IMG/VR virus record: IMGVR_UViG_3300024259_001791
Reading direction: 5' to 3' (one strand)
Origin: a virus
DNA: 64,000 nt
In this document: piece by piece, positions 6,056 through 63,632 of the stretch
Layout of the letters: the number at the start of each line of letters is the position of its first letter
Position numbering within the stretch: position 1 is the first letter of the stretch
The notes under the pieces: generated by a model
What the model saw: the letters and a program-made list of their open reading frames with translations, nothing else
The model's database searches: none
Told to the model about the DNA's origin: nothing
Program-made: the position numbers and the translations under genes

Positions 6056-7168
6056 ATACTTATATGCCTTATCTTTTTTTCTCTCTAAAAATAATGTAGC
6101 ATTATTGTACATCCAATTATAGATACGTATTTCCTGTAAACGTCCACCATATTCCAATGCATAATTATTAGCTTTTTTGTCATTCGTTTTTTTAGAGTAG
6201 ATTTTGACCATTGACAATCCACAACTAGAACATAATTGTTTTTGTAATCCCAAAATGAAATCACCACTTCCACACGCTACAGAAAAATGTATTCCGTTAC
6301 CATTTTTACCACTTTTTTTCCAACTGCCATCTCCATCAAAGTATCCCCTCACGAAATGATGTATAAGATGTTTTGGAATATTTTTAGTAGTTTTTTGCCA
6401 AGAGATAGTATGAGATTTCTTAGGTGTAATTCCTGATCTGTATAAGTCATTTATTATCTTATTGCTATGAATATCTATCCTCGCTATGCTAGATGGTTTA
6501 CCTCTTGATATATATGTTTTGATTCTAACGGGGTAATTACCAGTAATATGTTTACTAAATTTTTCAAGGTGTTTAACATCGTTTTCATGTATACCAATGT
6601 GGAGACAATTTTTAAATACATTACCATCTGCCCCTATAAATCCTAACCAATATGCTTTTTCTTCTGTATCTATTTTTTCAAAGAAATCAAAATTGCATGT
6701 ATATTTTCTCACTCCTTTAAACTTCCATACTTTGTTTTTAACCAATGTATATCTTATACCTGATGGAGTAACGTTAAAATGCCTTGCTATATCATTGACT
6801 CTTTTCCCTTTTTTATACATCTGTACTGCTTTTTTCTTCTTTTTATCAGTCCAATGTTTTGTCTTTGGGCGACGTTTGCCTATCGTATAAAGTTCCATTT
6901 CAATAAGTCTGTTTTTGATTGCTCTTTCTCCTACTTCAAAATCTTTTGCGATTTGACTGGCGGTTTCGTAATTAAGATAGCGTTGTTTAATTTCTTGGAG
7001 TTCTTCTTCTGTGAATTTCTTTCTGCCTTTAAATGCATTATGTCTCTTTAATAGGAATTGAATAGTCTTTTTGGTACATCCGTGTTCTTGTGCCAATTTG
7101 GGTGTTCCGATGCCAGATTGGTATTCTTTGACTATATGTTTCTCTTGTTCTGTAGTAAATTTGTACAT
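6038..7168 (-). CDS. free-standing LAGLIDADG homing endonuclease with N-terminal HTH repeats
   Basis: YWLGFIGADG and FVRGYFDGDGS; ATG at 7168 behind AAGGAG (track start 7210); opposite strand to neighbours. Confidence 0.85.
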   Translation of the reverse strand: MYKFTTEQEKHIVKEYQSGIGTPKLAQEHGCTKKTIQFLLKRHNAFKGRKKFTEEELQEIKQRYLNYETASQIAKDFEVGERAIKNRLIEMELYTIGKRRPKTKHWTDKKKKKAVQMYKKGKRVNDIARHFNVTPSGIRYTLVKNKVWKFKGVRKYTCNFDFFEKIDTEEKAYWLGFIGADGNVFKNCLHIGIHENDVKHLEKFSKHITGNYPVRIKTYISRGKPSSIARIDIHSNKIINDLYRSGITPKKSHTISWQKTTKNIPKHLIHHFVRGYFDGDGSWKKSGKNGNGIHFSVACGSGDFILGLQKQLCSSCGLSMVKIYSKKTNDKKANNYALEYGGRLQEIRIYNWMYNNATLFLERKKDKAYKYLFEVS

Positions 7169-7271
7169 TTTATCTCCTTTAAGTATCCAACGCTTCTTTC
7201 TATATAGCATGTAATCTATGGAAATTCCTTCTTCTAAAAAAGCTTTAAGCGAAAAAATAAATTACTGTTGC

Positions 7272-7302: not shown

Positions 7303-7576
7303 GTACTCCCCACGCGTGTGGGGGTGAACCGGACGGATGGCCACAATTTCGACATACTCTTGAAATATTCCCCACGCGTGTGGGGGTGAACCGACGATGC
7401 CGGGATTATCTGTATCTAAAGAAGAGTATTCCCCACGTATGTGGGGGTGAACCGCTTAGACAGCTTGCAGAATAGAAGGGAGTAACGTATTCCCCACGCG
7501 TGTGGGGGTGAACCGACAATGCCAGCTTGAGCAGCATAAGCAGCAATATATTCCCCACGTAAGTGGGGGTAAAAAA
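7303..7576 (+). CRISPR. CRISPR array 1, type I-E repeat, 5 repeats / 4 spacers
   Basis: 29-bp repeats RTAYTCCCCACGYRTGTGGGGGTGAACCG at 7303, 7365, 7426, 7487 and a degenerate one at 7548; spacers 33, 32, 32, 32 bp; CCCCAC/GTGGGG hairpin. Confidence 0.97.
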
Positions 7577-7619
7577 TAGAATTTTTCAATAAAAGTAAGG
7601 TGATTGTCGTAGATTGTTG

Positions 7620-7626
7620 CTATAAT
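7620..7626 (+). promoter_or_regulatory. CTATAAT motif upstream of cas3
   Basis: followed by AAGGA SD and ATG 7644. Confidence 0.55.
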
Positions 7627-7643
7627 GTGTTGAAGGAATAAAA

Positions 7644-10316
7644 ATGAGTAAAGACAAGTTAGATTTATTATTAAAATTGCCTGGTAAAAAAAGCGGTTTA
7701 AATTTGTATCCAACACTTTTTCATTGTTTTGATACTATGTTAGTTGCAAAAGAGATTATCAATTCATACCCAGAAAATGTTAAATTATGGATATCTGAAT
7801 CGCTTGGCATAAAAATCGAAGACTTAATTCCGCTTTTATCATTTATAATTGGACTACATGATATCGGAAAATTAACTCCTTCTTTTCTTCACCGTATTTT
7901 TGGAACAACAGATGACATACCGTTAAATATTAAGAAATATTTTTCTTGTGATGGGAGTAAGCCGGATTATTGGCATGCTCGTTCTAGTCAAGACATATTA
8001 AGAGAAGAAATGTGCGACGTATTTGATCAGTATGGGGAAAATATTTATGATTTTTTTAACATGATTGCCACTTTAACCGGAAATCATCATGGATCAAGTT
8101 CGCCTTTTGAGTCTGAAAAATTACAAAGAGGATCAGGTGCAGAATGGAAAGAAGTACGAAAATTATTTGTTAATTATATTCAAGATTTTTCTTGTATCGA
8201 TTTTTCAACTTTTAAAGACAATTTTTCAGATGAAATACCAAGAAAAATTTTAATTTGGATATTGGGATTTATGGTCGTGTGTGATTGGGTAGCATCCGCT
8301 TCTATCAATATCAATTCAAATTCGCCGTTTGATTATCGGTCATATATACTGGACGTGCCAAAACGAAGTAAAAAAATATCAACATTTTTATGTTCCAATC
8401 ATTTGATTTCAAACTATAAAATTTCTACTGTTGATTGGGAAACAATCATCGGATATCCGTTAAATGAATTGCAAAAAATAACTAAAGATTTTCTTGAGGA
8501 TGGGACAATAACGGCAGATTGCGCAGTGCTGGTTAAAGGCCCAACAGGTTACGGAAAAACCGAAACTAGCCATATGATTAAATATCATTTTTTGAAATCG
8601 GGAAAAGTGATTGGATGTTATACCGCGATGCCGACTCAATCTTCTAGCAACATGTTATATAAGCGTGAGAATATTTTTTTGAATAAAATAGGTGTTCTTG
8701 ATTCTAATTTAATTCATGGTCATGCTTATCTTGTAGACGATTTTACAAAAGTTGTTGCATTGTTGCCCAAAGAGGCAAGACAATGGTTAACCATGAAAAA
8801 AGTAGCGATGTTACAACCTCATGGTGTTGGCACAGTAGATCAGTTATTGTTTTCTATTTTGCCAGTAAGACATTTTTCCTTAAGGACTTTCGGTATCGCC
8901 CACAAAGTGATCACTTATGATGAGATTCACTCTTATGATTCTTTTACTGGTGCATTAAATTTAGAATCCATTTCTTGGTCTGCGAATACGGGTTGTCCTA
9001 CAGTCCTATTGTCTGCTACTATGTCTGATAAATTACAATATGACATTGTTAGTTCATATTTGGGTAAACATGATATCGATAAATTTTCTACTGGTTACGG
9101 TATTACTGTAATTAACCGTATAACAGGAAAAATTACTCATAAACCTCTACGGCTCGATAAAAAAGATGAAAAGAAAATTTCAATAGATTTTATTTCAGGA
9201 AAAAAAAGTATAGATAAAATAATATCTTCTGCAAACAACGGAGGATGTGTTTGTGTATATAAAAATACTGCGAAAACCGCAATAATAACACGCAAAAAAA
9301 TCAAAAAGACTCTCAAGAAAAACAATATTAATGATATAGAGGTTTATATTATTAGAAATAGATTTTCTCCACAAAAAAGACAAGAAATTGAAAATGATAT
9401 TGACAAAAAGTTTGGAAAAAATGGGCAACGGCCCAAAAAAGCAATTGTTATATCTACTCAAATTCTCGAACACAGTTTAGATTTGGATTTTGATGAAATA
9501 TTTACTGATTTGTGTCCGATTGATCACTTATTACAGCGTGGTGGGAGATTGCATCGATTCAATATAATTAGGCCGCTTGGAAAAGAAAAGCCACGCATGA
9601 ACATAATACTAGTTTCAAAAAATCCTGTTTATTTAAAATATTTTTGCATAAAAACTGAATTAGTTTTAAAAGATAAAAATGAAATAATTATTCCCACCGA
9701 TGTATCATCTCTTATAAATAAAGTTTATAATTTTTCGAATCATGATACGATAACTAATGACAAAAATCAAATTTTAGAATTAGATAAATTACAAAAAAAG
9801 GTAGAAAAAAGTGAGAAAAAAGACTCTCGTGAATCTACATTGCAAATAATTGGAAAACCGTCATCGTTGATAGATGATGCAAAAGAAATTATTTTAGAAC
9901 GTAATTTATATTCTATAAACGGAAAAGACATAGAAAAAGAAATAGAGTTGGGAATTACTCAAATACCACTTACTAGAAAAAAATCTTTTTCCGCTAGTTT
10001 GATTTATATTTTCAAGATCAATGGAAAGTGTTATTACGACAATTTAGGAAAACAAGAAATTGATATTAATGATTCTGAATTGGTCAAAAATTTAATAGAA
10101 AAATGCTCCATTAGTTCTATTTTCGCTTTTGAAAAGATTTTTGAAGAAAATAAATCAATTTTTAAAAGGATTAGTAATTCTAAAAAATGGGAAACTATTT
10201 GGGACGATACCTGTCTCCAATATTACCATTTAATTGTATTAGAAAATAACGAATCTAATATCGGGTGCGGAAAAAAAGTTACCTTTGATCCGGAAGTTGG
10301 AGTAGACATCGAGTGA
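7644..10316 (+). CDS. cas3: Cas3 HD nuclease-SF2 helicase
   Basis: LFHCFD, LHDIGK, NHHG and CDWVAS HD residues; GPTGYGKT, AMPTQ, GTVDQ, DEIH, LSAT, STQILEHSLDLDFD and QRGGRLHR helicase motifs; adjacent to the array. Confidence 0.95.
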   Translation: MSKDKLDLLLKLPGKKSGLNLYPTLFHCFDTMLVAKEIINSYPENVKLWISESLGIKIEDLIPLLSFIIGLHDIGKLTPSFLHRIFGTTDDIPLNIKKYFSCDGSKPDYWHARSSQDILREEMCDVFDQYGENIYDFFNMIATLTGNHHGSSSPFESEKLQRGSGAEWKEVRKLFVNYIQDFSCIDFSTFKDNFSDEIPRKILIWILGFMVVCDWVASASININSNSPFDYRSYILDVPKRSKKISTFLCSNHLISNYKISTVDWETIIGYPLNELQKITKDFLEDGTITADCAVLVKGPTGYGKTETSHMIKYHFLKSGKVIGCYTAMPTQSSSNMLYKRENIFLNKIGVLDSNLIHGHAYLVDDFTKVVALLPKEARQWLTMKKVAMLQPHGVGTVDQLLFSILPVRHFSLRTFGIAHKVITYDEIHSYDSFTGALNLESISWSANTGCPTVLLSATMSDKLQYDIVSSYLGKHDIDKFSTGYGITVINRITGKITHKPLRLDKKDEKKISIDFISGKKSIDKIISSANNGGCVCVYKNTAKTAIITRKKIKKTLKKNNINDIEVYIIRNRFSPQKRQEIENDIDKKFGKNGQRPKKAIVISTQILEHSLDLDFDEIFTDLCPIDHLLQRGGRLHRFNIIRPLGKEKPRMNIILVSKNPVYLKYFCIKTELVLKDKNEIIIPTDVSSLINKVYNFSNHDTITNDKNQILELDKLQKKVEKSEKKDSRESTLQIIGKPSSLIDDAKEIILERNLYSINGKDIEKEIELGITQIPLTRKKSFSASLIYIFKINGKCYYDNLGKQEIDINDSELVKNLIEKCSISSIFAFEKIFEENKSIFKRISNSKKWETIWDDTCLQYYHLIVLENNESNIGCGKKVTFDPEVGVDIE

Positions 10317-10323
10317 TGCATGA

Positions 10324-10330
10324 CTATAAT
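10324..10330 (+). promoter_or_regulatory. CTATAAT motif upstream of cas8e
   Basis: intergenic, followed by GGAG SD and ATG 10351. Confidence 0.55.
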
Positions 10331-10350
10331 GGTATACGAAGCAGGAGAAA

Positions 10351-11955
10351 ATGATGAGCGATAAAGCTTACAATTTATTAGATGAACAATTTATTCGTTG
10401 TTGCTGTAATGATGGCGGTGTTAAAATGCATTCTCTTAAAAGCATTTTTGAAGATTCGCATTCTGTGATAGAAATCATTTGCAAAAATGAGTGGGAAAGA
10501 ATATCTCTTTTGAGATTGATGCAATCCGTATTGTATTGCTCATCTTTATTTTTGACATTAAAAGACTGTAAGACATTGTGGAAGCAAACCAAATTTAACG
10601 ATCAAGATGTCAAAAAAATTCATAATTATTTAGAATCGTGTCGAGAAAAATTTTATCTTATTCACCCAAAATATCCTTTTTTGCAGACTTCTGAAGATAT
10701 GGATGAAAAAACTATATCTCACATTTATTGTTTGGGATATGAAGGCGAATCTTCAATGCCATTTTTTAATCATACGACTAATAATAGCGGCCCAATTGAT
10801 GCTATTGATACTGTTGTACAGCTTATCTCTATGCAATTCATAGTCCCGGCGGGAGGTAGGGGATATATCACTTCGGAATTATCAGGTAAAAATATTTATT
10901 TAATTGGGGGTAACAATCTTTTTGAAATAATTTCATTAAATACTATTCCGTATAAAACATTTGCTGCATCATTTGGAGAGGATACGGTTGATTTAAGTGA
11001 CGATTTACCTTCGTGGGAAAGTGAAGAAAAATCTATTGCAAAAAAAATCGGTCCCATTAATTATATGACTACGACTCATAGAAAAATAAAATTGATCCCT
11101 GATGGTGGTGACACGCTGAAATTTAAGAAAATGTATTTTTCTGCAAAGAATAGAACTGAAATAGGGTATAAACAATATGAAGATACAATTATAGAACCTT
11201 TATTTTGTTACAGCCGCAAATTAGTGACTGATAAAAAAGTCGACAAAAAAATATCGAAGTGGATTCCTTTTAACGTAGACAAAAACAAATATCGAAAACA
11301 ACTTTCTTGGATTAATTGCCATTCACTAATTAATTATAAAAACCAAGATATTAAATGTCCAAAAAATATAAAACACGCCACTGAATTACTTAAAAATAGT
11401 TGTAGTTTTTCGTATCCTATTGAAGTATCAATTAGCGGCGTAAAGTCAGCTTCAATTCGCTATATATACAGGTCAAAGCTTCCGATAGAATTAACTTCAA
11501 ATTTTTCTTTGGAAGATAATATGGAAATATTTTCTGATGAAATTCGATGCTTATGCGACGAATTTATAAAAGAAGAAAAATCTTTAAAAAAAGTCATAAA
11601 CGATAACTTCGATTTTGTACAAGGTAAGAAGAAAGAAAAAAATGACAAGAAAAGTAGCAACAGTACAGTCACTGAAAAATATTTGTTTTCATATTGGTCT
11701 AATGTCAGCCAGAAATTTAAAAATATAATGGTTAAAGATATTGAAAAATCAATACTATTAAAAAAGATTACCGAATGTAGAGAAAAGAACATTAAAATAT
11801 GTCATGGTATATCAGATCGTATCTTGAAATCTATCAGAAAAGATGTTGGAAAAAGATACTTGGAGAATTGGGTAAAAGCTTCTAACTCATTGAAGAAAAA
11901 AAGAAATTATAAAAAAGGAGTTGTAAAAAATGAACGAAACAAAACAAAAAAATGA
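10351..11955 (+). CDS. cas8e: Cas8e (Cse1/CasA) large subunit
   Basis: YNLLDEQFI N-terminus, PFLQ, GNNLFEIISLN and GPINYMT..RKIKL motifs; position after cas3. Confidence 0.8.
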   Translation: MMSDKAYNLLDEQFIRCCCNDGGVKMHSLKSIFEDSHSVIEIICKNEWERISLLRLMQSVLYCSSLFLTLKDCKTLWKQTKFNDQDVKKIHNYLESCREKFYLIHPKYPFLQTSEDMDEKTISHIYCLGYEGESSMPFFNHTTNNSGPIDAIDTVVQLISMQFIVPAGGRGYITSELSGKNIYLIGGNNLFEIISLNTIPYKTFAASFGEDTVDLSDDLPSWESEEKSIAKKIGPINYMTTTHRKIKLIPDGGDTLKFKKMYFSAKNRTEIGYKQYEDTIIEPLFCYSRKLVTDKKVDKKISKWIPFNVDKNKYRKQLSWINCHSLINYKNQDIKCPKNIKHATELLKNSCSFSYPIEVSISGVKSASIRYIYRSKLPIELTSNFSLEDNMEIFSDEIRCLCDEFIKEEKSLKKVINDNFDFVQGKKKEKNDKKSSNSTVTEKYLFSYWSNVSQKFKNIMVKDIEKSILLKKITECREKNIKICHGISDRILKSIRKDVGKRYLENWVKASNSLKKKRNYKKGVVKNERNKTKK

Positions 11956-12427
11956 TTTAAAGGTTAATTTCATAAAACACTTAAATCAATTGCTTGTTAA
12001 AGATAATGTGGAAGCAATTAATTGCTATAGGCGCTGTTTGAAATTAGAGGATAAAAATGCTCGTCGGCAAACATGCGAGTATAAAGGGTGTACCCCTTAT
12101 AAATTCATGAAAGAATTTTTCTTTATTGGTGGGTTATTTATGGAATATAAAAATAATACAGATAAAGAATATAAGAATTTTGGAGATTCTTGTCGTGAAT
12201 TATATTTTGCGATGGACAAGGCTGATTTGATAAACAATTATTTTCGCAATTTATTGACTCTTGACAACATTGATACAGTTCTTATAGAAATCAAAAGATT
12301 AATTAGTCGAATGACAGAATATTCTATAAAAATTAATTATTCCAATATGTTATCTGATATAATGAATTGGCATCATAAAGATGAGTTTGTGCAAGACAAA
12401 TTAGCGCTATCTTTTTGGAAGAATTAA
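11930..12427 (+). CDS. cse2: Cse2 (Cas11/CasB) small subunit
   Basis: helical 165 aa; FGDSC, FRNLL, INYSNMLSDIMNW and VQDKLALSFW resemble Cse2; position between cas8e and cas7. Confidence 0.75.
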   Translation: MNETKQKNDLKVNFIKHLNQLLVKDNVEAINCYRRCLKLEDKNARRQTCEYKGCTPYKFMKEFFFIGGLFMEYKNNTDKEYKNFGDSCRELYFAMDKADLINNYFRNLLTLDNIDTVLIEIKRLISRMTEYSIKINYSNMLSDIMNWHHKDEFVQDKLALSFWKN

Positions 12428-12460
12428 TATAACATAATTATAATAAAGGAGAACAAAATT

Positions 12461-13633
12461 ATGACGATGGAAATCGAAAAAGATGTATTAAGAAAAAACA
12501 GAGGAAACAATTTTGGGGCACCGCACCTTGTCTTAGATATGATTTGGAACAGTCCTGGTGCTAATTTCGTTCGTGACGATATGAATCACCCCAAAAACAC
12601 ATTTTCGGCAGCATTGCTACGTGCAGTTCGAGAAAATTCCAGTAGCCCAGTTAGAATTACTGCCAGCAGAACTGAAGCTATTGATTTTATTAAGAATCAC
12701 GTTCGTGAAATACTGAAAGATAGTGTTGAAATTGATAAAGAAACATTAGATGAAAAAACAGAAGATATCTATGGCAGATATTTTCAAGGTAAGAAGAAAG
12801 AAGAAAAAAATAACAAGAAAAGTGATAACAAGAAAAGTGATAACAAGAAAGATCAACAATTTTTAGGATTTAAGGAAGAATTGCAACATATCGGGAATCA
12901 TATAGCATCGTTGTATGTCGGTAAAGACGAAAAATTGACTCAATTTATTCCTATAGATATTTGGAGAGGCAACCCGGCTTTAGTTAAGACGGAAAATGTT
13001 GATGGGACAAATCAATTACACTGTGATGGTTGTCTGCGCATGAATGGTTATAAACTTGGGTTGCCTACTGCAAAAAGCGAATTTATTGTAGCTAAAGATG
13101 ACTTATGCCTTACTCAGTCTAAAGGTTCTTTTATGGGCATTCGTTACGCACACAGTGATTCACTTTACTATGTTAGTGCTTGTATAGAACTTGTACGTCC
13201 TTTTGAATTAAGTGGTTTGCACAAAAGAGATTTTGAAGATGACTTCAAAGAATTAATTACGAATATAATTTATTCCCGTCCAAACGGCATGACCGAAATT
13301 TACAATAACGATCAGATTACGACAGAATTTATAACGGCACGAATTAGACATGGTGGACAACGTACTTATGGGTGTGGTGGAGTTTATGGAAAAACCACCC
13401 CACAAGGAGCGGAGTCTACAGGAGAGGTTGTAGATCATCTAATCTCATATTTGGATTATCAGTTGGCAAATCATGGAGATTATGAGAATAATAATGTAGA
13501 ATGTTTTTATGTTCCTTTATGGAATTGGAAAACACAATATCCAGATCGTTGGGAATCTTGTAAAAATCATCCTTCTTTCGTGGAAAAACTAGCGAAAACA
13601 AGTATCGAAGCAATTGATAAACATTTAGGATAA
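12461..13633 (+). CDS. cas7: divergent Cas7e (CasC)
   Basis: RDDMNHPK, LLRAVR, EFIVAKDDL and LYYVSAC motifs; size and position. Confidence 0.7.
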   Translation: MTMEIEKDVLRKNRGNNFGAPHLVLDMIWNSPGANFVRDDMNHPKNTFSAALLRAVRENSSSPVRITASRTEAIDFIKNHVREILKDSVEIDKETLDEKTEDIYGRYFQGKKKEEKNNKKSDNKKSDNKKDQQFLGFKEELQHIGNHIASLYVGKDEKLTQFIPIDIWRGNPALVKTENVDGTNQLHCDGCLRMNGYKLGLPTAKSEFIVAKDDLCLTQSKGSFMGIRYAHSDSLYYVSACIELVRPFELSGLHKRDFEDDFKELITNIIYSRPNGMTEIYNNDQITTEFITARIRHGGQRTYGCGGVYGKTTPQGAESTGEVVDHLISYLDYQLANHGDYENNNVECFYVPLWNWKTQYPDRWESCKNHPSFVEKLAKTSIEAIDKHLG

Positions 13634-13638
13634 TAATA

Positions 13639-14994
13639 ATGGCAGGAATTATATTAAAGATGGAAGGACAAAGACAATCGTATGGTATTCAAAGTCATTA
13701 CAGCGTTCGTGACACCGAAAAATTTCCAACGAAATCAGCAGTTGTGAACATGGTACGTGCCGCTGCTGGTATTGGTCGAACAAATGAGAAATTGATTGAA
13801 TTGAATGATACAAAAATGACGGTTAGGATTGATTATCCAGGTGAATATAAAGAAGATTTTAGAACAGCACAATTTGAAGATCGCCTAACAAGAGGAGAAA
13901 AACCATCAAAAAATAAAACTATAGTTCAATATAAACACTATTTATGCGATGCGAGTTTTTTAGTGTTATTAGATTCACCTGATTCGGAATTGATAGAGTG
14001 GGTAGCTGGTGTTGTTAAGAGTCCAGAATGGTATCCATATCTTGGAAGGAGAGAATACGAACCATCTGCACCTATATATGTGAGGCATTGGTCTGATAAG
14101 TCTATCGGAAAGGATATCCTAGAAAAAGAACCGTGGTTTTATCGTGGTGATGTTAAAAAACCTGAAAAATTGGAATATATTCAAGAAATACCAAACAATG
14201 ATAAAGATGGTATTTTAATCAAGGATGTAATGATTAATTCTGCCGATAGAATTTTTAGTTATCGAAAAATTAAATCAGTTGAAAAGCCATTAAATGCTGA
14301 ATTGATTAAAGAAACTCCTAGTTTTACGGTATCTCATGGACATATGCCCGCTATCAAAAAAAGAAAAAACCAAATTATTTTCGAGAACAAATGTGATCAA
14401 AATGCAGATGAATACATTACTATTTTAAAATTTGAAAATGAAAATTATGTTTATCAATTCGCAAATCATCCTCATGACTTTTTTCATATAATTTGTAAGT
14501 CTCTCCCGTCTATAGATGATGGAGGAAAGGGAAGATGTTTATTCTCTGTACAAGAATCTCATATAATAGTTAAAACTGAAAAAAAACCTGATTGGTCTTT
14601 TTTAAACGAATACAATAAAGGAATTATAAAGTGTTGTATTCATCCTGTAATATATGACAAATGGGATCAATTAAATCATCTCCGTTGTTGGTTACGGTAT
14701 AATCCAGTTAAAAGACTAGACGGAAAAAATGTATTATTAAAAACTGAACGAGAACGATTGGAATGGTTGAATAAAAGAAGTAAAAATTATGGTTTGAAGA
14801 TTTTGAATTGTAATATATCACATACTGAAAAAGTCGAAGGTAAACAGCATAATATTATTGTCGCTGATGTAGAATTAGAAATTAAAGTTGTTGACAAAGA
14901 GTTGTTTGTTGAAGCATGTAAAAATGGTATCGGTAGAGAGAAAAATGCAGGATGTGGTTTATTGTTATTCGAAAATATGATTTTTAGGTCGTAA
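13639..14994 (+). CDS. Cas5e-Cas6e fusion protein
   Basis: N-half: LKMEGQRQSYG, RDTEKFPTKSAVV and PYLGRR (Cas5e); C-half: RYNPVKR, EWLNKR and G-rich loop GIGREKNAGCGLL (Cas6e); no stop between them. Confidence 0.85.
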   Translation: MAGIILKMEGQRQSYGIQSHYSVRDTEKFPTKSAVVNMVRAAAGIGRTNEKLIELNDTKMTVRIDYPGEYKEDFRTAQFEDRLTRGEKPSKNKTIVQYKHYLCDASFLVLLDSPDSELIEWVAGVVKSPEWYPYLGRREYEPSAPIYVRHWSDKSIGKDILEKEPWFYRGDVKKPEKLEYIQEIPNNDKDGILIKDVMINSADRIFSYRKIKSVEKPLNAELIKETPSFTVSHGHMPAIKKRKNQIIFENKCDQNADEYITILKFENENYVYQFANHPHDFFHIICKSLPSIDDGGKGRCLFSVQESHIIVKTEKKPDWSFLNEYNKGIIKCCIHPVIYDKWDQLNHLRCWLRYNPVKRLDGKNVLLKTERERLEWLNKRSKNYGLKILNCNISHTEKVEGKQHNIIVADVELEIKVVDKELFVEACKNGIGREKNAGCGLLLFENMIFRS

Positions 14995-15067
14995 TGTGAT
15001 CAACACTTATATCTGCAAAACTACCATATATAGTGTTTTTGTTGATTATGTCATACAGGATGTTAGT

Positions 15068-15590
15068 GTACTCCCCACGCGTGTGGGGGTGAACCGGCCT
15101 CGTGCCCTCTGAGACACTGTTGTATAGACGTACTCCCCACGCGTGTGGGGGTGAACCGACTACAGAAAAGATATGAACATATCATAGAACGTACTCCCCA
15201 CGCGTGTGGGGGTGAACCGATTGGAGACAAGATAGTTTGCAGAAACGCACTGGTACTCCCCACGCGTGTGGGGGTGAACCGGAATAGTCAATTTTTTGCG
15301 GAAAGAATACATCACGTACTCCCCACGCGTGTGGGGGTGAACCGGTGACGGGTTTTGTATTATGTTTGCAATAGTTGTACTCCCCACGCGTGTGGGGGTG
15401 AACCAGAGGAATTTGTAGACAAGTGAGGCGATCATAAGTATTCCCCACGCATTGTGGGGGTGAACCTGCTGCTGGACAAACTGTATTCAGAGGCGTACCA
15501 AATTCCCCACGCATGTGGGGGTGAACCGCAATACCGCCACGCCAGTAACTCTACTATTTGGTATTTCCCCACTCGTGTGGGGGTGAACAT
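15068..15590 (+). CRISPR. CRISPR array 2, type I-E repeat, 9 repeats / 8 spacers
   Basis: GTACTCCCCACGCGTGTGGGGGTGAACCG at 15068, 15130, 15191, 15253, 15316; variants at 15377, 15438, 15500, 15561; spacers 32-34 bp; degeneration toward the 3' end. Confidence 0.98.
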
Positions 15591-19496: not shown

Positions 19497-19564
19497 AAAG
19501 ACCACCATCTCACCTATAATAAATTAGCAAGGGGCCAGTGTGTCCCTATAATCGGAGATTTATT

Positions 19565-20611
19565 ATGAAATTCCAACGTTTTAGTTCCATTGACAACAGC
19601 TATCGCAGCAAGACTGTTAACCTTTTCATTGAGAAGGGTCTTTCTGATGGTGAGTGGACTGTTGGAGAAAAAATACATGGTTCGAATTTTTCTTTGTGGT
19701 GTGATGGAGAAGAGTTGATTTGTGCTAAGAGAGGAAGTTTCCTAAAGAATACTGACAACTTCTTCAACAACCACAAGGTTATGAGTGACCATAGAGAGCG
19801 TATGAGCGATCTTTTTGTGATTCTTGACAAAGAGGCTCATGGCGGATTTGATTGGGCCACGGAATTAGAGATCACGGAAGTAGACGATTTCGTAGTCTAC
19901 GGAGAAATCTTTGGTGGGTGGTATCCTCATCCTGACGTAGAGAAGGTCGAAGGGGCCGTTAAGGTTCAGAAGGGTATTTACTATAGCCCTAGAAATGAAT
20001 TCTATGCCTATGACATTAAGGTTAATGGACAGTTTATCAACGACGATGATTGCCAGAGGCTCTTGAAGGTTGTAGGGATTTTCAATGCAGAGCCTTTGTT
20101 CCGTGGAACTTTCAGAGAGTGCTTGGATTATCCTAACGAGTATCAATCTACTATCGCAAAGAGACTTGGTTTGCCAGTAATCGAAGACAATATCTGTGAG
20201 GGTAATGTGATTCGTCCTGTTCATGCTAAGTATCTCTCTTGTGGTTCTAGAGTTATCTTGAAGAACAAGAACGATAAGTGGTCTGAGAAGATGAAGGGAG
20301 AGCCGAAGGAGAAGAAAGAAGTTATTCTTTCTGAGGCGGCTTCTCAGTTGTTTGGAGAGATTAGTTCTCTCGTTACAGAGAATAGATTGAGAAACGTTCT
20401 ATCTAAGACTGGTCCGATTACTCAAAAGGAATTCGGAAAATTGCTTGGCTTGCTAATGCAAGATGCGTTTGAAGAGTTCAATAAGGATTGGGCGGAAGAC
20501 TTTGCGAAGTTGGGTAAGGACGAGTCTAAGACCATCAATAAGATGGCTAACCAGTCAGCAGCGGGTTTGATTAGAACCAACTTCTTGAATATTATTGACG
20601 AAACTTTTTGA
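19565..20611 (+). CDS. RNA ligase 2 (Rnl2 family)
   Basis: motif I EKIHGSNFS, GEIFGG, VQKGIYY, FYAYDI, EGNVIRP and ILKNKN. Confidence 0.92.
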   Translation: MKFQRFSSIDNSYRSKTVNLFIEKGLSDGEWTVGEKIHGSNFSLWCDGEELICAKRGSFLKNTDNFFNNHKVMSDHRERMSDLFVILDKEAHGGFDWATELEITEVDDFVVYGEIFGGWYPHPDVEKVEGAVKVQKGIYYSPRNEFYAYDIKVNGQFINDDDCQRLLKVVGIFNAEPLFRGTFRECLDYPNEYQSTIAKRLGLPVIEDNICEGNVIRPVHAKYLSCGSRVILKNKNDKWSEKMKGEPKEKKEVILSEAASQLFGEISSLVTENRLRNVLSKTGPITQKEFGKLLGLLMQDAFEEFNKDWAEDFAKLGKDESKTINKMANQSAAGLIRTNFLNIIDETF

Positions 20612-20644
20612 AAGGTTCATTCAACTTTAGTTTGAATTAATAAG

Positions 20645-21376
20645 ATGAACGAAAAAGAATTCAAAAACAGAGGACTCTCGATCATCACCAATTTCGGATG
20701 CGATACTGGTTGTAGTTATTGCATTTGGAAAGATCACATAATGATTAATACGCCCACAACTGTAATGTCTACAGACTGGGGTAAATTAAAGAAAATATTA
20801 TCTTTTTTCCCTCAAGATAAAATCAGCGTATCAGGTGGTGGTGATCCTCTCTTTAATTTTGAAAAGAATAAAAATTGGTGGAAATGTTTTTTTGCCATTT
20901 GTCATAAGTACGATAAAAAGATTGATGTCCATACGTCAAAACTTACGGAAGATGAATGGTTTTTGAAACACATAAATAGATATGTTTTGCATTTAAATTG
21001 GAATCGATTTATAGGCGGTGGTCGCTCAATTATGCCACAATTATTGGCATTACCCACAAAAATTAGATTAACATTTGTGGCAGTACCTCCAGAATCCACG
21101 GCAACTCCACACTTGCATCACGAAGCGGTTCTCGACATTCTTGAACAGTCAAGAAAAATAGAGGAATGTCAGGTCAGTTTTCGTGAATTATATGGTAGCA
21201 GTAGAGAGGAATGTGACGAATTTCAATATAAAAGATATTTAAGGGAACTAGACAGATTAATTCGAGTAATAGATAATAATAAAATCAAACTTGTCCGGCA
21301 GAATGACTATAATGTATACTACATGCCGGATAATAATTTATACACTGATTTTATGGGTTATGACAAAATATGCTAG
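20645..21376 (+). CDS. radical SAM protein
   Basis: CDTGCSYC (CxxxCxxC) and SVSGGGDPL. Confidence 0.85.
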   Translation: MNEKEFKNRGLSIITNFGCDTGCSYCIWKDHIMINTPTTVMSTDWGKLKKILSFFPQDKISVSGGGDPLFNFEKNKNWWKCFFAICHKYDKKIDVHTSKLTEDEWFLKHINRYVLHLNWNRFIGGGRSIMPQLLALPTKIRLTFVAVPPESTATPHLHHEAVLDILEQSRKIEECQVSFRELYGSSREECDEFQYKRYLRELDRLIRVIDNNKIKLVRQNDYNVYYMPDNNLYTDFMGYDKIC

Positions 21377-21385
21377 GAACATTAT

Positions 21386-21925
21386 ATGACTAAAGATAAG
21401 AAAAATACAACCGACAATGGGACTCTTTTGGCTGAAAAGAACAATATGTCTGTTGAAAAATATAAGCATTTGAAATCGCTTTTGAGACATATCAAAAACG
21501 TTCAAAGTGCTGCTGAATTATTGGGAGAAAGATTGATGGAAAAAGGCGAAGTCCAATTTGCTATCAATCTTATTAAGAATAGCATGGAACACGATCAAAG
21601 CAAATTCCATGGTATTGAGTGGGAATCTCTTACAAGAGTAGAAGAGGATAAAGAGCTACTCAAATTGTCTCTAAAACAACACGTTGAGGTTAACGAGCAT
21701 CATCCAGAGCATTGGGGTGGAATTGCAGAAATGCCACGAATCTTTATTGCAGAAATGGTGTGCGATTGTTTTGCTCGTTCTACCGAAATGGGAACAGATT
21801 TAAGACAGTGGATTAAAGACGTTGCTATGAAAAAGTATGAAATGACACCTAGAGGTAAATCATATAAAATTATCAAAGAATTTCTTGATTTGCTTTTAGA
21901 CGATCCGTTTGGAAAGGTGAAATAG
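21386..21925 (+). CDS. HD-like phosphohydrolase (DUF5662-like)
   Basis: RHIKNVQ, HDQSK, HHPEHW and EMVCD. Confidence 0.7.
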   Translation: MTKDKKNTTDNGTLLAEKNNMSVEKYKHLKSLLRHIKNVQSAAELLGERLMEKGEVQFAINLIKNSMEHDQSKFHGIEWESLTRVEEDKELLKLSLKQHVEVNEHHPEHWGGIAEMPRIFIAEMVCDCFARSTEMGTDLRQWIKDVAMKKYEMTPRGKSYKIIKEFLDLLLDDPFGKVK

Positions 21926-21943
21926 AAGTAGTTTATTTTCAAA

Positions 21944-22456
21944 ATGACGAAATACATTCGACAAACTAGACGAACGACTTGTGGACCGGTGGCAGTCCTA
22001 AATGCCTTGAAGTGGGCAGGTTACAATTTTACTCGTGAATCTCATTTCAATAAATTATGCAAAGAACTACAATGGTCGCCTTATCATAAAATGGGTTATG
22101 TGGGAACGCATCCTTATTACATTAGAAAAACGTTAGAAAAATATCCTAAGATAAGAACATTATATACTAGCAATTGTATTGATATAAAAGATTTAGATAG
22201 ATGTTTAGACTTCGATGATTTTTCTTTTATTATACGATATTTTTATAAACTAGGCAAAGAAACCATCGGTCATTATGTTTTTTGTCCGAAACGTACACTT
22301 AAAAAATATATATTTATTAATGATAAATATGGCAAGACTATAATGTATCGATCACGGAGTACAATGTCAAATAGGTTAAAGCAAACAAGCGACTGTGGTT
22401 TTACTTTACATCAACCTTATGTTTGGTTACTTCAAAGGTCTATAAAAAGGATATAA
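21944..22456 (+). CDS. papain-like / C39-like peptidase
   Basis: Q....CGPVAVLNAL, GHYVF and IND. Confidence 0.65.
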   Translation: MTKYIRQTRRTTCGPVAVLNALKWAGYNFTRESHFNKLCKELQWSPYHKMGYVGTHPYYIRKTLEKYPKIRTLYTSNCIDIKDLDRCLDFDDFSFIIRYFYKLGKETIGHYVFCPKRTLKKYIFINDKYGKTIMYRSRSTMSNRLKQTSDCGFTLHQPYVWLLQRSIKRI

Positions 22457-22457
22457 T

Positions 22458-23597
22458 ATGAGCGACTTAAAAGATTTTGATAAACCTGTCTCGCCACTTG
22501 GCGTACATTCTAGGGAAGATTATCAAGAGACAAATAAAGATTTAGAACACTTGAATATTACAAGTTATGGCAATCCAATTCTACCGCCATACCCATCGAA
22601 CCTGATATTCAAGGATGCTTTCTATCTTCCAAGCGGAAGAGTGTTTCTATTAGAATCAGGTGACGGTTATCCTCTTGAGTGTACTGAAATGAGGGACGTT
22701 TCAATCGGTGGAAAGCAACACCAAGAAGTGCGTACAAGTCTTGACCCGCACGTTATTTGGAAACACTTGGTTTCCTATCGAGACAAGTGGCTTTTGACGG
22801 TTTCAACGCAGAAAGGATGCCAGCATTTTTGCCATTTTTGCGATTGTGCATCATTGCCCTTTAAAGGCAACTTGACTACGTTAGAAATTATAGATCAAGT
22901 TAAGTTCATCTTAGAATCTACACCGTATGTAAAAACATGCAATAAGGCAAAAATCGGTTTTGCTCGTATGGGAGAGCCAGCACACAACTTGGAAAACGTT
23001 ATCGCTGCTATTAAGCACCTTCCTGTTATGACAAAAGCGGCTGGAAAAAGATTTAAATGGCTTCCATGCTTTAATTCTATTTTGCCAAGAAAAACTGTGC
23101 CTGACAAATATTCAGGCCATTATGTAATCTATGAAGTAATGAAAACCAAAGAAAAAGATTTCAATGGATTTCTTCACTTCCAGATTTCTTGTAATTCGAC
23201 TGATGAAGATAAGAGAAAAGAATTGTTCGGCGGTGCTGACGTTTTGACGATGAAAGAGATTATTACTGCGGTTAATGAATGCGATGTGACCAATCGTACA
23301 GTTACTCTTAATTTCATCGCCATGAAAGGCGTTCCTGTTGACGTTGAATATCTGATGAAGTTGGGATTAAATCCTAAAAAGTTTATGGTCAAATTGATCC
23401 CATTGAATGCAACTAATAACGCTGGTGAACACAAGTTGGAAACGGTTGCGAATTACGAGAATTACGAAGACTTGGTTGAATTAGGAAAAAGGTTCAATCA
23501 CTACGGTATCCCGACATGTGTGGATGCAATTGCTAAGTGTGAGGAAGCTGGACTATGTTGTGGGCAATTAGCCCATATTTTTGCGAATGGAGAATAA
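22458..23597 (+). CDS. RlmN/Cfr-like radical SAM enzyme
   Basis: VSTQKGCQHFCHFC, MGEP and C-terminal CCGQL. Confidence 0.8.
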   Translation: MSDLKDFDKPVSPLGVHSREDYQETNKDLEHLNITSYGNPILPPYPSNLIFKDAFYLPSGRVFLLESGDGYPLECTEMRDVSIGGKQHQEVRTSLDPHVIWKHLVSYRDKWLLTVSTQKGCQHFCHFCDCASLPFKGNLTTLEIIDQVKFILESTPYVKTCNKAKIGFARMGEPAHNLENVIAAIKHLPVMTKAAGKRFKWLPCFNSILPRKTVPDKYSGHYVIYEVMKTKEKDFNGFLHFQISCNSTDEDKRKELFGGADVLTMKEIITAVNECDVTNRTVTLNFIAMKGVPVDVEYLMKLGLNPKKFMVKLIPLNATNNAGEHKLETVANYENYEDLVELGKRFNHYGIPTCVDAIAKCEEAGLCCGQLAHIFANGE

Positions 23598-23598
23598 G

Positions 23599-24123
23599 AT
23601 GGAAATGTCAGCAGGAACAGAAGAAGCTGTAAACTTGTATAAAATGCTCAGAACTGCAAGGTCACTTGCGGAAGAAAAACACTTTGGTCAAAAGGATTTA
23701 CGTGGAGAAGATTATATCGGTCATGTTTATCAGGTGTCGTTGCCTTTTAAAGAAGCAGTTTTGGGCATGATTCCATTACGTACTAAAAAAGCCATTGTTG
23801 CATGGCTACACGATATTCTCGAAGATACAGATGTGACTGTAAACGATCTACGTGAACTTGGATTCACCGAAGATATTATTGAAGCTGTTGTGGCTATGAC
23901 CCACGTAAAGGGAGAACGTTATACCGATTATATTATTAGGGTTGGAGATAACGAAATCGCTCGTGATGTGAAAAAGGCTGATTTGACTCACAATATGGAT
24001 TTGCACAGAATCGCGTATAATTTCAAAAACCCCAGCAGAGATATGAAAAGAATCGAAAAGTATATCAGAGCATATGAATATCTTTTTGGAAGAGCGACTA
24101 AAGAGGAATATCTAAATCAATGA
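23599..24123 (+). CDS. HD-domain hydrolase (RelA/SpoT-hydrolase-like)
   Basis: HFGQKD..GEDYIGH, AWLHDILEDT and VKKADLTHN. Confidence 0.85.
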   Translation: MEMSAGTEEAVNLYKMLRTARSLAEEKHFGQKDLRGEDYIGHVYQVSLPFKEAVLGMIPLRTKKAIVAWLHDILEDTDVTVNDLRELGFTEDIIEAVVAMTHVKGERYTDYIIRVGDNEIARDVKKADLTHNMDLHRIAYNFKNPSRDMKRIEKYIRAYEYLFGRATKEEYLNQ

Positions 24124-24605
24124 AAATTTATGTAGCAAGTAAAGGCACTGTTAATAAAATGAGTAGACATCTTGATGTCCCTCATGTGCTTATATCTATG
24201 AAAGGGTCTGACGAAAGACGACCTTTTTTGATGCCAAATGCAAAAAGGATTGTCACACAATATTTTCTTTTTGATGATATCGATCTGTTCCAATTGGACA
24301 ATGAAACTGCTAGAGCCAAATTGCAGAAAAAGATCATAGCAGACGGTACGGGGATATTGTTTGACGAAGATAAGGCTGATAGGATTGTCAGCTTTGTCAA
24401 TTCATTCAAAGATAAAGTGGAAGCATTTATCTGCCAGTGTGACGCTGGTGTTTCAAGAAGTTCTGCTGTTGCTGCGGCAATAGCAAAGGAATTCGATATA
24501 ACAGATATAGACTATTTTAATCACGCATTATATTACCCAAATAGATGTGTGTATAAAATGGTTACGGAAGCCTTTGAGAAGGCGAGAAGGGAGACAAATA
24601 GATGA
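24120..24605 (+). CDS. protein-tyrosine/dual-specificity phosphatase-like protein
   Basis: CX5R P-loop CDAGVSRSSA. Confidence 0.8.
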   Translation: MKIYVASKGTVNKMSRHLDVPHVLISMKGSDERRPFLMPNAKRIVTQYFLFDDIDLFQLDNETARAKLQKKIIADGTGILFDEDKADRIVSFVNSFKDKVEAFICQCDAGVSRSSAVAAAIAKEFDITDIDYFNHALYYPNRCVYKMVTEAFEKARRETNR

Positions 24606-25102
24606 TATATGTAGAGTCACCTAAAGAGTTTAATTTCGATAATAAAAAGGATCATGTCAGCTTTTTTCTAGCAGGGGGAATTACAGATTGTCCAGATTGG
24701 CAACAAGAAATTAGAGGATTGCTTAAGGACGAAAAAGTTATTCTAGTAAATCCACGTAGGAAACATTGGGATATGAGCGGCGGCGATGAAGCCTCTCGTA
24801 AACAAATCACATGGGAATACAACAATCTAAGAGCAGTAGATATGATTTTGTTTTGGTTCCCAAAAGAAACGATGTGTCCCATTGTTTTGCTTGAATTAGG
24901 TTCATGGTTAGTAAAAAGGGAAACTCCTATCTTTGTTGGAGTCCACCCGAAATACGAAAGAAAATTAGATGTAGAAACTCAAACCAAACTTGCTAGACCT
25001 AATGTTGAAATCGTTGATTCATTAGAAGATTTGGCAGAACAAGTAAAGAAATCACATCCGCTTTTTGGAGCATTTTCTTTTACAACACCAGGCAATAAAT
25101 AG
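24602..25102 (+). CDS. nucleoside 2-deoxyribosyltransferase-like protein
   Basis: FLAGGIT..DWQ, NPRR, QITWE and PIVLLELG. Confidence 0.8.
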   Translation: MIYVESPKEFNFDNKKDHVSFFLAGGITDCPDWQQEIRGLLKDEKVILVNPRRKHWDMSGGDEASRKQITWEYNNLRAVDMILFWFPKETMCPIVLLELGSWLVKRETPIFVGVHPKYERKLDVETQTKLARPNVEIVDSLEDLAEQVKKSHPLFGAFSFTTPGNK

Positions 25103-26019: not shown

Positions 26020-27348
26020 ATGGCAATGGAAAGAGACTCAACCCCTAGCGGCAAACGAACGGAATATCACAAGTTTGTCCTATCAGACGTAGACAATAAC
26101 AACAACAAGTTTTGGAATGTCGGTCTTTATGATAGCGGTGATGTAGAGATCGAATTCGGTAGAGTTGGCGTTACGAGAACACAAGGCGTACACAGAGGGG
26201 CAGGAAGCCACAAAATGACCTCTCTAATCAATTCTAAGGAGAAAAAGGGCTACAGAGAGTCGAAAGTGCTTGACGGCGATTTCGGTGCTTCTACAACCTC
26301 AAGTACCCAAAAGGTGAGTTCTTCTAAGTTAAAGAACATTGCTAGAGATCAAATTCAACATACTTCACCAGCCACTACAAAACTGATTGAATGGCTGGCA
26401 GAAGTTAACCGTCATAATATCGTGAAGGCTACTGGCGGATGCATCACCTATAACTCTAATAAAGGATTATTCCAAACAGAGCAAGGTATTGTTACGCCAG
26501 TAGCTATTTCCGAAGCTAGACTCCTATTGGACGATATTAGTGATTATATCGCTAAAGGCCAATATGATAGTTCTGTATTGAAACGTAAATTGGGCAGCTA
26601 TTTAATGCTTATTCCTCAAAATGTAGGCATGAAATTAAATGTAAGGAAATTCCTGCCTGACTTGCCAGCCGTACAAAGCCAAGGACAAATTCTTGACGCT
26701 TTGGATGCGTCTTATGTAAGTGCGACCTCACAACCACAAGATACGAAGAAGGCTACAAAGGTTGACAAAACGCCTAAGCTGTTTGAGACGAAGTTGATTA
26801 TCGTTTCCAAGGGCGATGTGTTTGATCGAATTAGAAAATTCTATGAGCGTTCTCGCAATAGAAGTCATTATAACGTATATGACTTGAAGGTGAAGAAAAT
26901 TTGGGAAGTCGAAATTGCTCATATGAAAGCAGCTTTTGAATTAATGGCCAAGAGGATTAAAAACGTAAATGAATTGTGGCATGGAACACAAGCAAGTAAC
27001 CTATTATCTATTCTAAAGGGTGGTCTTGTGATTCCTCCATCAAGTTCTTCCCATGTAACTGGCAGAATGTTTTATAATGGTATCTATTTTTCTGATCAAT
27101 CTACTAAAGCATTAAATTATGCCACAAGTTTTTGGGGAAGCAGTGATATCGGACGTTATTTCATGTTTATGGCAGATGTATCTATGGGCAAATATTATGT
27201 TCCATCAGGACCAAGAAGTTGCCTTCCACCTGCTGGTTATGATAGTTATTTCGCCCAGGGTCGTAAAAGCGGCGTACAAAATAATGAAATGATTGTGTTC
27301 AAAACATCTCAAGTTAATTTGCGTTATTTAGTGGAATTTGGTAAATAA
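26020..27348 (+). CDS. WGR-domain plus PARP-like ADP-ribosyltransferase
   Basis: N-terminal NNNKFW...IEFGRVG (WGR); C-terminal LWHGT, GIYFS..STKALNYA and NNEMIVF (H-Y-E triad); CTATAAT at 25976. Confidence 0.9.
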   Translation: MAMERDSTPSGKRTEYHKFVLSDVDNNNNKFWNVGLYDSGDVEIEFGRVGVTRTQGVHRGAGSHKMTSLINSKEKKGYRESKVLDGDFGASTTSSTQKVSSSKLKNIARDQIQHTSPATTKLIEWLAEVNRHNIVKATGGCITYNSNKGLFQTEQGIVTPVAISEARLLLDDISDYIAKGQYDSSVLKRKLGSYLMLIPQNVGMKLNVRKFLPDLPAVQSQGQILDALDASYVSATSQPQDTKKATKVDKTPKLFETKLIIVSKGDVFDRIRKFYERSRNRSHYNVYDLKVKKIWEVEIAHMKAAFELMAKRIKNVNELWHGTQASNLLSILKGGLVIPPSSSSHVTGRMFYNGIYFSDQSTKALNYATSFWGSSDIGRYFMFMADVSMGKYYVPSGPRSCLPPAGYDSYFAQGRKSGVQNNEMIVFKTSQVNLRYLVEFGK

Positions 27349-61651: not shown

Positions 61652-61724
61652 GGTGACTATGGTGTAATCGGCAGCATGGGAGGTTGTGAGCTTCTCGGTG
61701 CCAGTTCAAATCTGGTTAGTCACC
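61652..61724 (+). tRNA. tRNA-His(GTG)
   Basis: G-1, acceptor GTGACTA/TAGTCAC, loop TT-GTG-AG, T-loop TTCAAAT, C73; CCA not encoded. Confidence 0.88.
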
Positions 61725-61793
61725 CGTTAAGAAGTTAGTAAGTTGGATCGTTGAGGATTTGACTGTTAAAGTTGATAAGTAAATATAGAATAT

Positions 61794-61869
61794 GCGGGCG
61801 TAGCTGAATTGGAGCAGCGGTGGCCTACGAAGCCATGTCATTATGTAGGTTCGAGTCCTACCGTCCGTA
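61794..61869 (+). tRNA. tRNA-Arg(ACG)
   Basis: acceptor GCGGGCG/CGTCCGT; GTGGC-CT-ACG-AA-GCCAT; T-loop TTCGAGT; 8-nt variable region. Confidence 0.88.
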
Positions 61870-61944
61870 GTTAATATTTTTACATTTTTATTAAGAAGGA
61901 TTTTCCGAACCTTTATAGTATTATATATAACAGAGGTTTGAATT

Positions 61945-62841: not shown

Positions 62842-62897
62842 CAGCAGCATGGAAGATTCCAAATCTTTTGGCGAGGGTGCAAATCCTTCTAGGCGTG
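62827..62897 (+). tRNA. tRNA-Trp(CCA), non-canonical D/T loops
   Basis: acceptor ACGCCTA/TAGGCGT; GAAGA-TT-CCA-AA-TCTTT; T-loop TGCAAAT; G73. Confidence 0.8.
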
Positions 62898-62898
62898 G

Positions 62899-62970: not shown

Positions 62971-62973
62971 TTT

Positions 62974-63043: not shown

Positions 63044-63046
63044 CAA

Positions 63047-63119: not shown

Positions 63120-63188
63120 TTTGTTTCGACGATGGTGATGGAAGTTATCCTTATAATGTTGTTTCATAACATTAAGAAAGGATATACT

Positions 63189-63617: not shown

Positions 63618-63632
63618 GTTATATGTAAAACA

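Follow-up and report, generated by a model that had tools for sequence, protein, structure and literature searches.

From our analysis of IMGVR_UViG_3300024259_001791, an IMG/VR virus record of 64,000 nucleotides (hereafter the window), the open reading frame (ORF) at positions 22458-23597 was found to encode a radical S-adenosylmethionine (SAM) protein of the RlmN/Cfr type which carries threonine in the place of the resolving cysteine [Table 1]. The window is huge-phage-like, with nearly all of its genes on the plus strand and six tRNA genes, and megablast against a phage collection gave no match, with no close relative among deposited phages. The ORF begins one base past the stop codon of the upstream gene, and a Shine-Dalgarno-like AAAGGA site precedes its ATG at 22458. 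The NCBIfam model of RlmN (TIGR00048) matched residues 98-371 of the 379-residue protein with 66.3 bits (E 2.3e-18), below its curated cutoff of 290 bits, and the Cfr model (TIGR04432) gave 45.1 bits, below its cutoff of 550 bits; the Pfam scan returned only a sub-threshold Radical_SAM match, and PHROGs assigned the protein to phrog_24834, for which no function is annotated. Using phmmer against PDB chains, residues 108-186 were aligned to residues 112-193 of E. coli RlmN, and hhalign comparison of a profile of 43 homologues with the same enzyme gave 97.6% probability (E 4e-12) over 260 columns, starting at RlmN residue 87.

An AlphaFold2 (AF2) model built from an 87-sequence alignment (predicted local distance difference test, pLDDT, 88; predicted template-modelling score 0.86) was compared with the PDB using Foldseek, and the ten best matches were all RlmN structures (E 1e-14 to 8e-13; template-modelling (TM) scores 0.57-0.65), led by 6FZ6 (E 1.4e-14; TM 0.59/0.65) and followed by Cfr (E 5e-7) and then by generic radical-SAM cores. 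Such an alignment and structural comparison with RlmN and Cfr had been proposed in a preliminary description of this DNA, made from the letters alone, and its outcome bears out the kinship. By sequence and modelled fold, the ORF is a distant RlmN/Cfr homologue, and the match is well beyond chance. The [4Fe-4S]/SAM motifs, the beta-extension, and the C-terminal loop cysteine (Cys368) are retained in the 379-residue protein, and the columns of Arg253 and Glu74 are common to it and the true RlmNs, Glu74 being kept in 81 of 87 sequences, true RlmNs among them. The N-terminus, however, was only partly "unrelated" as first described. Homologues do not extend over residues 1 to about 49, and the HhH2 N-terminal RNA-binding domain is absent (no Pfam N-terminal-domain match, with disordered residues 1-39 in its place), but residues 50-110 form the RlmN-type beta-extension.

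Two essential cysteines define the class-A radical SAM methylases, of which RlmN and Cfr are the textbook examples. The hhalign register places Cys368 of the window protein at RlmN Cys355, which is the methyl carrier, Cys367 at Ala354, and M171-G-E-P at RlmN M178-P181. Thr114, on the other hand, stands opposite RlmN Cys118 in three independent alignments, phmmer and hhalign being in the same register, and the 11 residues preceding the first cluster cysteine (KWLLTVSTQKG) contain no cysteine. The preliminary description had read these sites in the same way, with threonine at the Cys118 position and both MGEP and the methyl-carrier cysteine kept, the latter within CCGQL. A search of 5.8 billion proteins returned 426 homologues, and among the best 120 (62-89% identity, mostly 325-340 aa) CCGQ is present in every one, while the Cys118-equivalent site is a residue other than cysteine in all 118 with a readable cluster motif (116 Thr, 1 Asn, and 1 in a Thr-to-Ile context). 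In a scan of IMG/VR, the single-protein query recovered one distant locus and the alignment query recovered 64 phage loci, none of which carries cysteine at that site. These loci form two subclades, one with TVSTQK...PC...CCGQ and the other, at about 40% identity, with AISTQY...PC...CCGN; both lack the cysteine seven residues ahead of the cluster motif (the -7 position) and keep Cys204, Cys367, and Cys368. Judged from this distribution, the loss of Cys118 is a trait of the clade and not a lesion. One allele of this family with vicinal cysteines (the CC family) bears a LAGLIDADG-domain intein (P0283), inserted just after the CX3CX2C motif.

Table 1. Positions of the RlmN-like gene, its active-site features, its partner gene, and other features in the window and in related loci
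Feature	Sequence	Position	Strand	Basis or remark
RlmN/Cfr-like radical SAM gene	Window	22458-23597	+	Open ORF, 379 aa; TIGR00048, hhalign, AF2/Foldseek
Lineage-specific N-terminal extension, residues 1-49	Window	22458-22604	+	pLDDT <50 at residues 1-39; homologues begin near residues 48-57
Beta-sheet extension, residues 50-110, including near-invariant Glu74	Window	22605-22787	+	AF2 strands 50-57, 60-66, 72-78
Thr114 codon (ACG) at RlmN Cys118 position	Window	22797-22799	+	phmmer, hhalign, codon read
CX3CX2C cluster motif (C121, C125, C128), then clade-signature Asp129	Window	22818-22844	+	Cysteines invariant in alignments
ARMGEP SAM-binding motif (A169-P174); Arg170 where RlmN GMGEP has Gly	Window	22962-22979	+	phmmer, hhalign, alignments
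Cys204 (LPCFNS), C-terminal part of strand beta3; candidate substitute catalytic Cys	Window	23067-23069	+	Invariant in 43-homologue alignment
Cys361 (AKCEE)	Window	23538-23540	+	Invariant in subclade above 47% identity
CCGQ: Cys367 (extra) and Cys368 (methyl-carrier Cys355 equivalent)	Window	23556-23567	+	hhalign register; CC in both phage subclades (CCGQ or CCGN)
Partner small radical SAM gene, 243 aa	Window	20645-21376	+	Homologue near RlmN-like gene in phage loci
Tightly packed gene block around the RlmN-like gene	Window	19538-25102
Rnl2-type RNA ligase	Window	19538-20611
DUF5662	Window	21386-21925
C39-like	Window	21944-22456
HD_4 phosphohydrolase	Window	23581-24123
DSP-like phosphatase	Window	24120-24605		Weak match
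Nucleoside 2-deoxyribosyltransferase-like	Window	24602-25102
ADP-ribosylglycohydrolase	Window	1013-2062
Intein-containing ORF, 857 aa	Window	2064-4637
Helix-turn-helix and LAGLIDADG-type homing-endonuclease-like ORF	Window	6038-7210	-
Type I-E-like CRISPR-Cas block	Window	7365-15281
First mini-array	Window	7365-7570		Period 61
Cas3	Window	7644-10316
Cse1	Window	10351-11955
Cse2	Window	11930-12427
ORF in Cas7 position, 390 aa	Window	12461-13633		No Pfam match
Cas5-Cas6e-like fusion	Window	13639-14994
Second mini-array	Window	15124-15281		Period 61
WGR-PARP protein	Window	26020-27348
tRNA cluster	Window	61653-63706		His-GTG, Arg-ACG, Trp-CCA, Ile-GAT, Pro-TGG
ARAGORN call with two-base "anticodon"	Window	62899-62970
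Intein-bearing CC-family allele	L023	6729-8792		LAGLIDADG domain
Third radical SAM gene, 296 aa	L034	1671-2558		Example, 40%-identity phage subclade
ORF of 142 aa between partner and RlmN-like gene	L065	7559-7984		Example, 40%-identity phage subclade; no Pfam match
Cellular sister clade of the enzyme, in three-gene unit	L074	5120-6013		Example
Cellular sister clade of the enzyme, in three-gene unit	L114	4467-5129		Example
Split RlmN-like gene, Kehishuvirus "tikkala" (crAss-like)	L147	3977-4899		Split by frame change
Split RlmN-like gene, Moorella phage MTATph1	L148	3968-4930		Core and tail split by in-frame stop

The loss of this cysteine is accompanied by two other replacements in the active site. 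When 1.84 billion cluster representatives were searched exhaustively with phmmer, 976 matches at E ≤ 1e-3 were obtained, in which two types were distinguished by their 50%-identity representatives. The true RlmN/Cfr type (13 representatives) has the -7 cysteine, a non-acidic residue after the third cluster cysteine, GMGEP, and AACGQL; the larger and unnamed group (70 representatives, one mixed case standing outside both) has a residue other than cysteine at -7, Asp or Glu after the third cluster cysteine, ARMGEP, and usually a CG[QN] cysteine, with a recognisable CGQ in 43 of the 70. The window protein belongs to this Asp/Arg group by T114, D129, R170, and C368, the last being kept in 67 of 74 aligned clade sequences. 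In a FastTree phylogeny (Shimodaira-Hasegawa-like supports, midpoint root), the topology of which is indicative only, the RlmN/Cfr clade (support 100) stands apart from the Asp/Arg clade (91), and the CC family is nested within the latter (96).

The Asp/Arg clade also has a cellular branch, with at least 558 matches in species-representative genomes (Anaerolineales, Aminicenantes, Eisenbacteria, Thermoplasmata, and others). Its members (FARMGEP...SNCGQ) share the triple signature and the CGQ cysteine with the phage family, to which they are sister in the tree, but most of them have serine at position 204 and asparagine before the CGQ cysteine and hence have no second active-site cysteine, which therefore cannot be a requirement throughout the clade. 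Unlike the phage genes they have no such small radical-SAM partner within 6 kb; instead, a flavoprotein of the thioredoxin-reductase fold lies directly upstream in 74 of 80 loci, and an isochorismatase-like hydrolase also precedes the gene in 53 of the 80. A role of the flavoprotein as disulfide reductase was considered and rejected, as CxxC is present in none of the 74, and for the same reason we read these proteins as electron donors; they look like donors of the FNR type, which is consistent with a supply of electrons for turnover. Such three-gene units (loci L067-L146) are found in many anaerobic bacteria and archaea, and fusions to isochorismatase-like (P0162) and MTA/SAH nucleosidase (P0165) domains also occur among the cellular relatives.

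In the known class-A enzymes, the loop cysteine is methylated, a hydrogen is abstracted from it, and the resulting methylene radical is added to C2 or C8 of adenine, after which the second cysteine removes the ring proton and the C-S bond is fragmented (PMC9692996; bioRxiv 10.64898/2026.02.27.707579). The RlmN-tRNA structure places the two cysteines on opposite faces of adenine C2, and Cys118 is now viewed as a general base and not as a disulfide partner (PMC9692996). The published variants RlmN C118A and Cfr C105A and C105S remain crosslinked to RNA (PMC9692996; bioRxiv 10.64898/2026.02.27.707579), as the preliminary description had stated for RlmN C118 mutants. Its further suggestion that the enzyme uses different chemistry is a fair one, given that the Cys118/Cys105 equivalent is absent and that the published variants are trapped as adducts.

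The reading that we favour, tentatively and with somewhat less than an even chance of being right, is that the window protein would be a working, multiple-turnover methyl synthase of the class-A type, from an uncharacterised sister clade of RlmN/Cfr, which resolves its covalent adduct without Cys118. Cys368 would be methylated by one SAM; a second SAM would give the 5'-deoxyadenosyl radical which turns the methyl group of Cys368 into a methylene radical; this would add to an sp2 carbon of the substrate, and a residue other than Cys118 would then deprotonate the enzyme-substrate adduct and bring about its fragmentation. The methyl-cysteine chemistry is probably kept because the clade retains the methyl-carrier loop, and, with the second cysteine missing throughout the clade and no substitute cysteine present in most of it, some other residue must serve as base. 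Since Asp129 appears where Cys118 disappears, it is the best clade-wide candidate for the deprotonation and fragmentation step, and an aspartate could fill the general-base role ascribed to Cys118. In the phage family, Cys204 and Cys367 may be alternative or additional players, acting either as base or in quenching the thiyl radical of Cys368. By homology, a nucleotide or an adenine within RNA would be the most likely substrate, on which the partner radical SAM enzyme described below most likely would catalyse a preceding or a following step, although this role of the partner is a guess.

Besides the homology and fold, the retained motifs, the three-site swap, the tree, the linkage to the partner, and the flavoprotein of the cellular relatives, the favoured reading is supported by the purifying conservation among the 426 homologues, with all motif residues kept in the top 120, and by the intein-bearing allele, in which the insertion lies beside the cluster motif. 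Three observations weigh against it. Cfr C105S is inactive, so that merely exchanging one residue in the RlmN scaffold does not restore the reaction (bioRxiv 10.64898/2026.02.27.707579); some clade members have no recognisable CGQ cysteine, many of these being fragments or split forms; and the isochorismatase-like neighbours and fusions of the cellular relatives hint at a small-molecule substrate and not RNA. Homology favours adenine in RNA as the target. The HhH2 domain, with which Cfr and RlmN grip RNA tertiary structure (bioRxiv 10.64898/2026.02.27.707579), is missing, and this absence together with the small-molecule-type neighbours of the cellular relatives argues that the substrate or its recognition differs from that of RlmN.

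Among the alternatives, the one which survives best, although we consider it unlikely, is that RlmN chemistry is followed exactly and the proton-abstracting thiol has been moved to Cys204 or Cys367. Both phage subclades retain Cys204, Cys367, and Cys368 as a set, even at 40% identity, and the PC motif at Cys204, which hhalign aligns to the TLSTSG strand of RlmN, is present in all phage loci with a readable motif but one. Cys204 is in the C-terminal part of beta3, which in radical-SAM cores borders the pocket on its SAM/methionine side. However, given the opposite-face placement of the two cysteines in the RlmN-tRNA structure (PMC9692996), a vicinal cysteine of the same loop would be poorly placed as base, which makes Cys367 the geometrically weaker candidate for proton abstraction; moreover, Cys204 and Cys367 are both absent from the related phage branches P0131, P0139, and P0140 and from most cellular members. 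The proposal of the preliminary description that the extra cysteine of CCGQL does the resolving is hence not a general solution for the clade. Cys130, which lies beside the cluster motif (CDC), was rejected as a substitute cysteine, being peculiar to the window copy and valine in almost all homologues.

A second radical SAM gene accompanies the RlmN-like gene in the phages. Using a hidden Markov model, a homologue of this small partner was found within 8 kb of the RlmN-like gene in 62 of 65 CC-family loci, the window included (58 of the 65 fetched loci by BLAST), and across the phage loci either gene may come first, the two as a rule adjoining or overlapping each other. In the window, the partner lies 1.1 kb upstream with the DUF5662 and C39-like genes in between. 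LPC on beta3, vicinal cysteines in the C-terminal loop, and a nearby small radical-SAM gene together delimit the phage CC subfamily, and all three are present here. The motifs of the partner are CX3CX2C and GGGDP, its tail (DYNxYYMPDN) is conserved, and beyond these motifs it has no invariant cysteine; its profile search of the PDB gave nothing significant, Foldseek with its AF2 model (pLDDT 87) returned only generic radical-SAM cores (EpeE, SuiB, viperin, PFL-AE; TM 0.5-0.64), and the ESM Atlas places it among viral clusters without an assigned function. In the 40%-identity phage subclade (loci L024-L065), an additional small ORF lies between the partner and the RlmN-like gene in 30 of 42 loci, and 20 loci have a third radical SAM gene, about 6 kb upstream.

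This tight linkage, together with a partner that has the core radical-SAM fold only and belongs to no known family, is what could be expected if the chemistry were obligately shared, the RlmN-like enzyme forming the methylene adduct and the partner resolving it or building a modification larger than methyl. We regard this as quite improbable, since the cellular clade members also lack the second cysteine and yet no partner homologue was found within 6 kb of them, and since no fusion of the two proteins turned up in a search for longer proteins, which yielded only the intein-containing allele; to our knowledge, adduct resolution by two enzymes has no precedent. A broader proposal, possible but doubtful in our view, is that the widespread two-radical-SAM phage module installs a new carbon modification on a nucleic acid (tRNA, rRNA, or DNA) or a nucleotide by a class-A-like methyl-cysteine mechanism resolved without the canonical second cysteine, which would make it a new mechanistic subclass with a role in phage take-over or counter-defence.

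Four cysteines outside the cluster motif (Cys204, Cys361, Cys367, and Cys368) are invariant in the 43-sequence alignment, a number which could suit the binding of a second, auxiliary Fe-S cluster; Cys368 would then be no methyl carrier, and the reaction would be other than class-A methylation. The chance of this seems slimmer still. Cys361 is replaced by alanine in the 40%-identity subclade (P0128) and is therefore unlikely to be essential, most of the clade has the CGQ cysteine only, and the CGQ context is inherited from the methyl-carrier loop of RlmN.

The crosslinked adducts of the C118A and C105A/S variants (PMC9692996; bioRxiv 10.64898/2026.02.27.707579) also lend themselves to the idea, raised in the preliminary description, of a suicide crosslinker which, in the manner of a stoichiometric toxin or a take-over factor, would become permanently bound to the rRNA or tRNA of the host. 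We consider this very improbable, as it fits poorly with the strong conservation, the intein-bearing allele, and the dedicated reductase-like neighbour of the cellular relatives. The same loss of cysteine is ancestral to the large cellular clade, in which operon-like units with the flavoprotein argue for turnover; the co-varying Asp/Arg substitutions look compensatory; and the domain which holds RNA in RlmN and Cfr is absent. Finally, several homologues are labelled 23S rRNA (adenine2503-C2)-methyltransferase by JGI, but that the gene is an ordinary RlmN orthologue and the missing cysteine an alignment artefact can practically be dismissed, given the cysteine-free KWLLTVSTQKG, the common register of the three alignments, and a score of 66 bits against the 290-bit cutoff.

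Compared with RlmN of E. coli (YfgB; m2A2503/m2A37; PDB 3RFA, 5HR7, 6FZ6), the window protein has the same partial TIM-barrel radical-SAM core with beta-extension, CX3CX2C, MGEP, and a CGQL loop cysteine in register with Cys355, but at 17-20% identity it differs in Thr for Cys118, Asp after the third cluster cysteine, ARMGEP for GMGEP, the extra Cys204 and Cys367, the missing HhH2 domain, and the linkage to a second radical-SAM gene. With Cfr (m8A2503; TIGR04432; PDB 9P0P) it shares the class-A architecture and the RlmN motif set, the match being weaker (45 bits; Foldseek E 5e-7), and it lacks both the Cys105 equivalent and the N-terminal domain. Nothing in these comparisons supports an antibiotic-resistance function or A2503 as the target of the phage protein. 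The automatic label 23S rRNA (adenine2503-C2)-methyltransferase is probably wrong for the Asp/Arg clade, and the clade is not to be read as a Cfr-like resistance gene. Split RlmN-like genes, found in Moorella phage MTATph1 and Kehishuvirus "tikkala", are likewise phage-borne with an RlmN-like core and no Cys118 equivalent, but they lie on the RlmN side of the tree, have FCATG instead of FCD, and carry the AACGQL tail on a separate ORF of about 40 aa. Their cores (about 265-275 aa) have neither the -7 cysteine nor the CGQ loop, and several of the CGQ-less 50%-identity representatives (P0154, P0204, and others) are of the same type.

A full-text search of the literature found no paper on RlmN-like enzymes without the second cysteine nor on a radical-SAM pair in phages. 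New findings are the covariation at three sites, the invariance of Cys204, the intein allele, and the cellular sister branch, in which the flavoprotein lacks CxxC. The Asp/Arg clade is a large natural one, common in huge phages and found in many uncultured anaerobes, and it keeps the methyl-carrier cysteine while the resolving cysteine and two other active-site residues are replaced. It therefore makes it possible to test directly by what route the covalent intermediate can be resolved and whether Cys118 serves solely as a base. The phage module, for its part, points to a new modification which would be made with a dedicated second radical SAM enzyme and is evidently needed by the phages.

The RlmN-like gene and its partner lie in a tightly packed block which looks like RNA repair or nucleotide metabolism. 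The other genes of this setting (Rnl2, DUF5662, C39-like, HD, phosphatase-like, nucleoside 2-deoxyribosyltransferase-like, and PARP) do not recur in the 64 phage loci, and because these neighbours are not conserved with the module, the RNA-repair-like setting is not part of it; the only other neighbour from the window which recurs is a single-stranded DNA-binding protein, with four weak matches of 27-41% identity. Proximity to tRNA arrays was likewise rejected as evidence for a tRNA target, as in the closer subclade only 3 of about 18 loci had an array at 8 kb or less and the other subclade had no such locus, a frequency close to that expected by chance in huge phages. The window itself has a tRNA cluster near its end, with five tRNAs and a further ARAGORN call. 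Of these, His-GUG and Arg-ACG tRNAs are RlmN substrates in E. coli, which is no evidence of the target of the phage protein.

Among the remaining genes of the window is a phage-borne CRISPR-Cas system of type I-E-like composition, flanked by two mini-arrays, in which no Cas1 or Cas2 was seen and an ORF without Pfam match occupies the Cas7 position. Just upstream of the first mini-array lies the homing-endonuclease-like ORF, the only sizeable minus-strand gene of that region. An intein is also present in the 857-aa ORF which follows the ADP-ribosylglycohydrolase gene, and the latter, together with the WGR-PARP protein, would give the phage eraser and writer functions for ADP-ribosylation.

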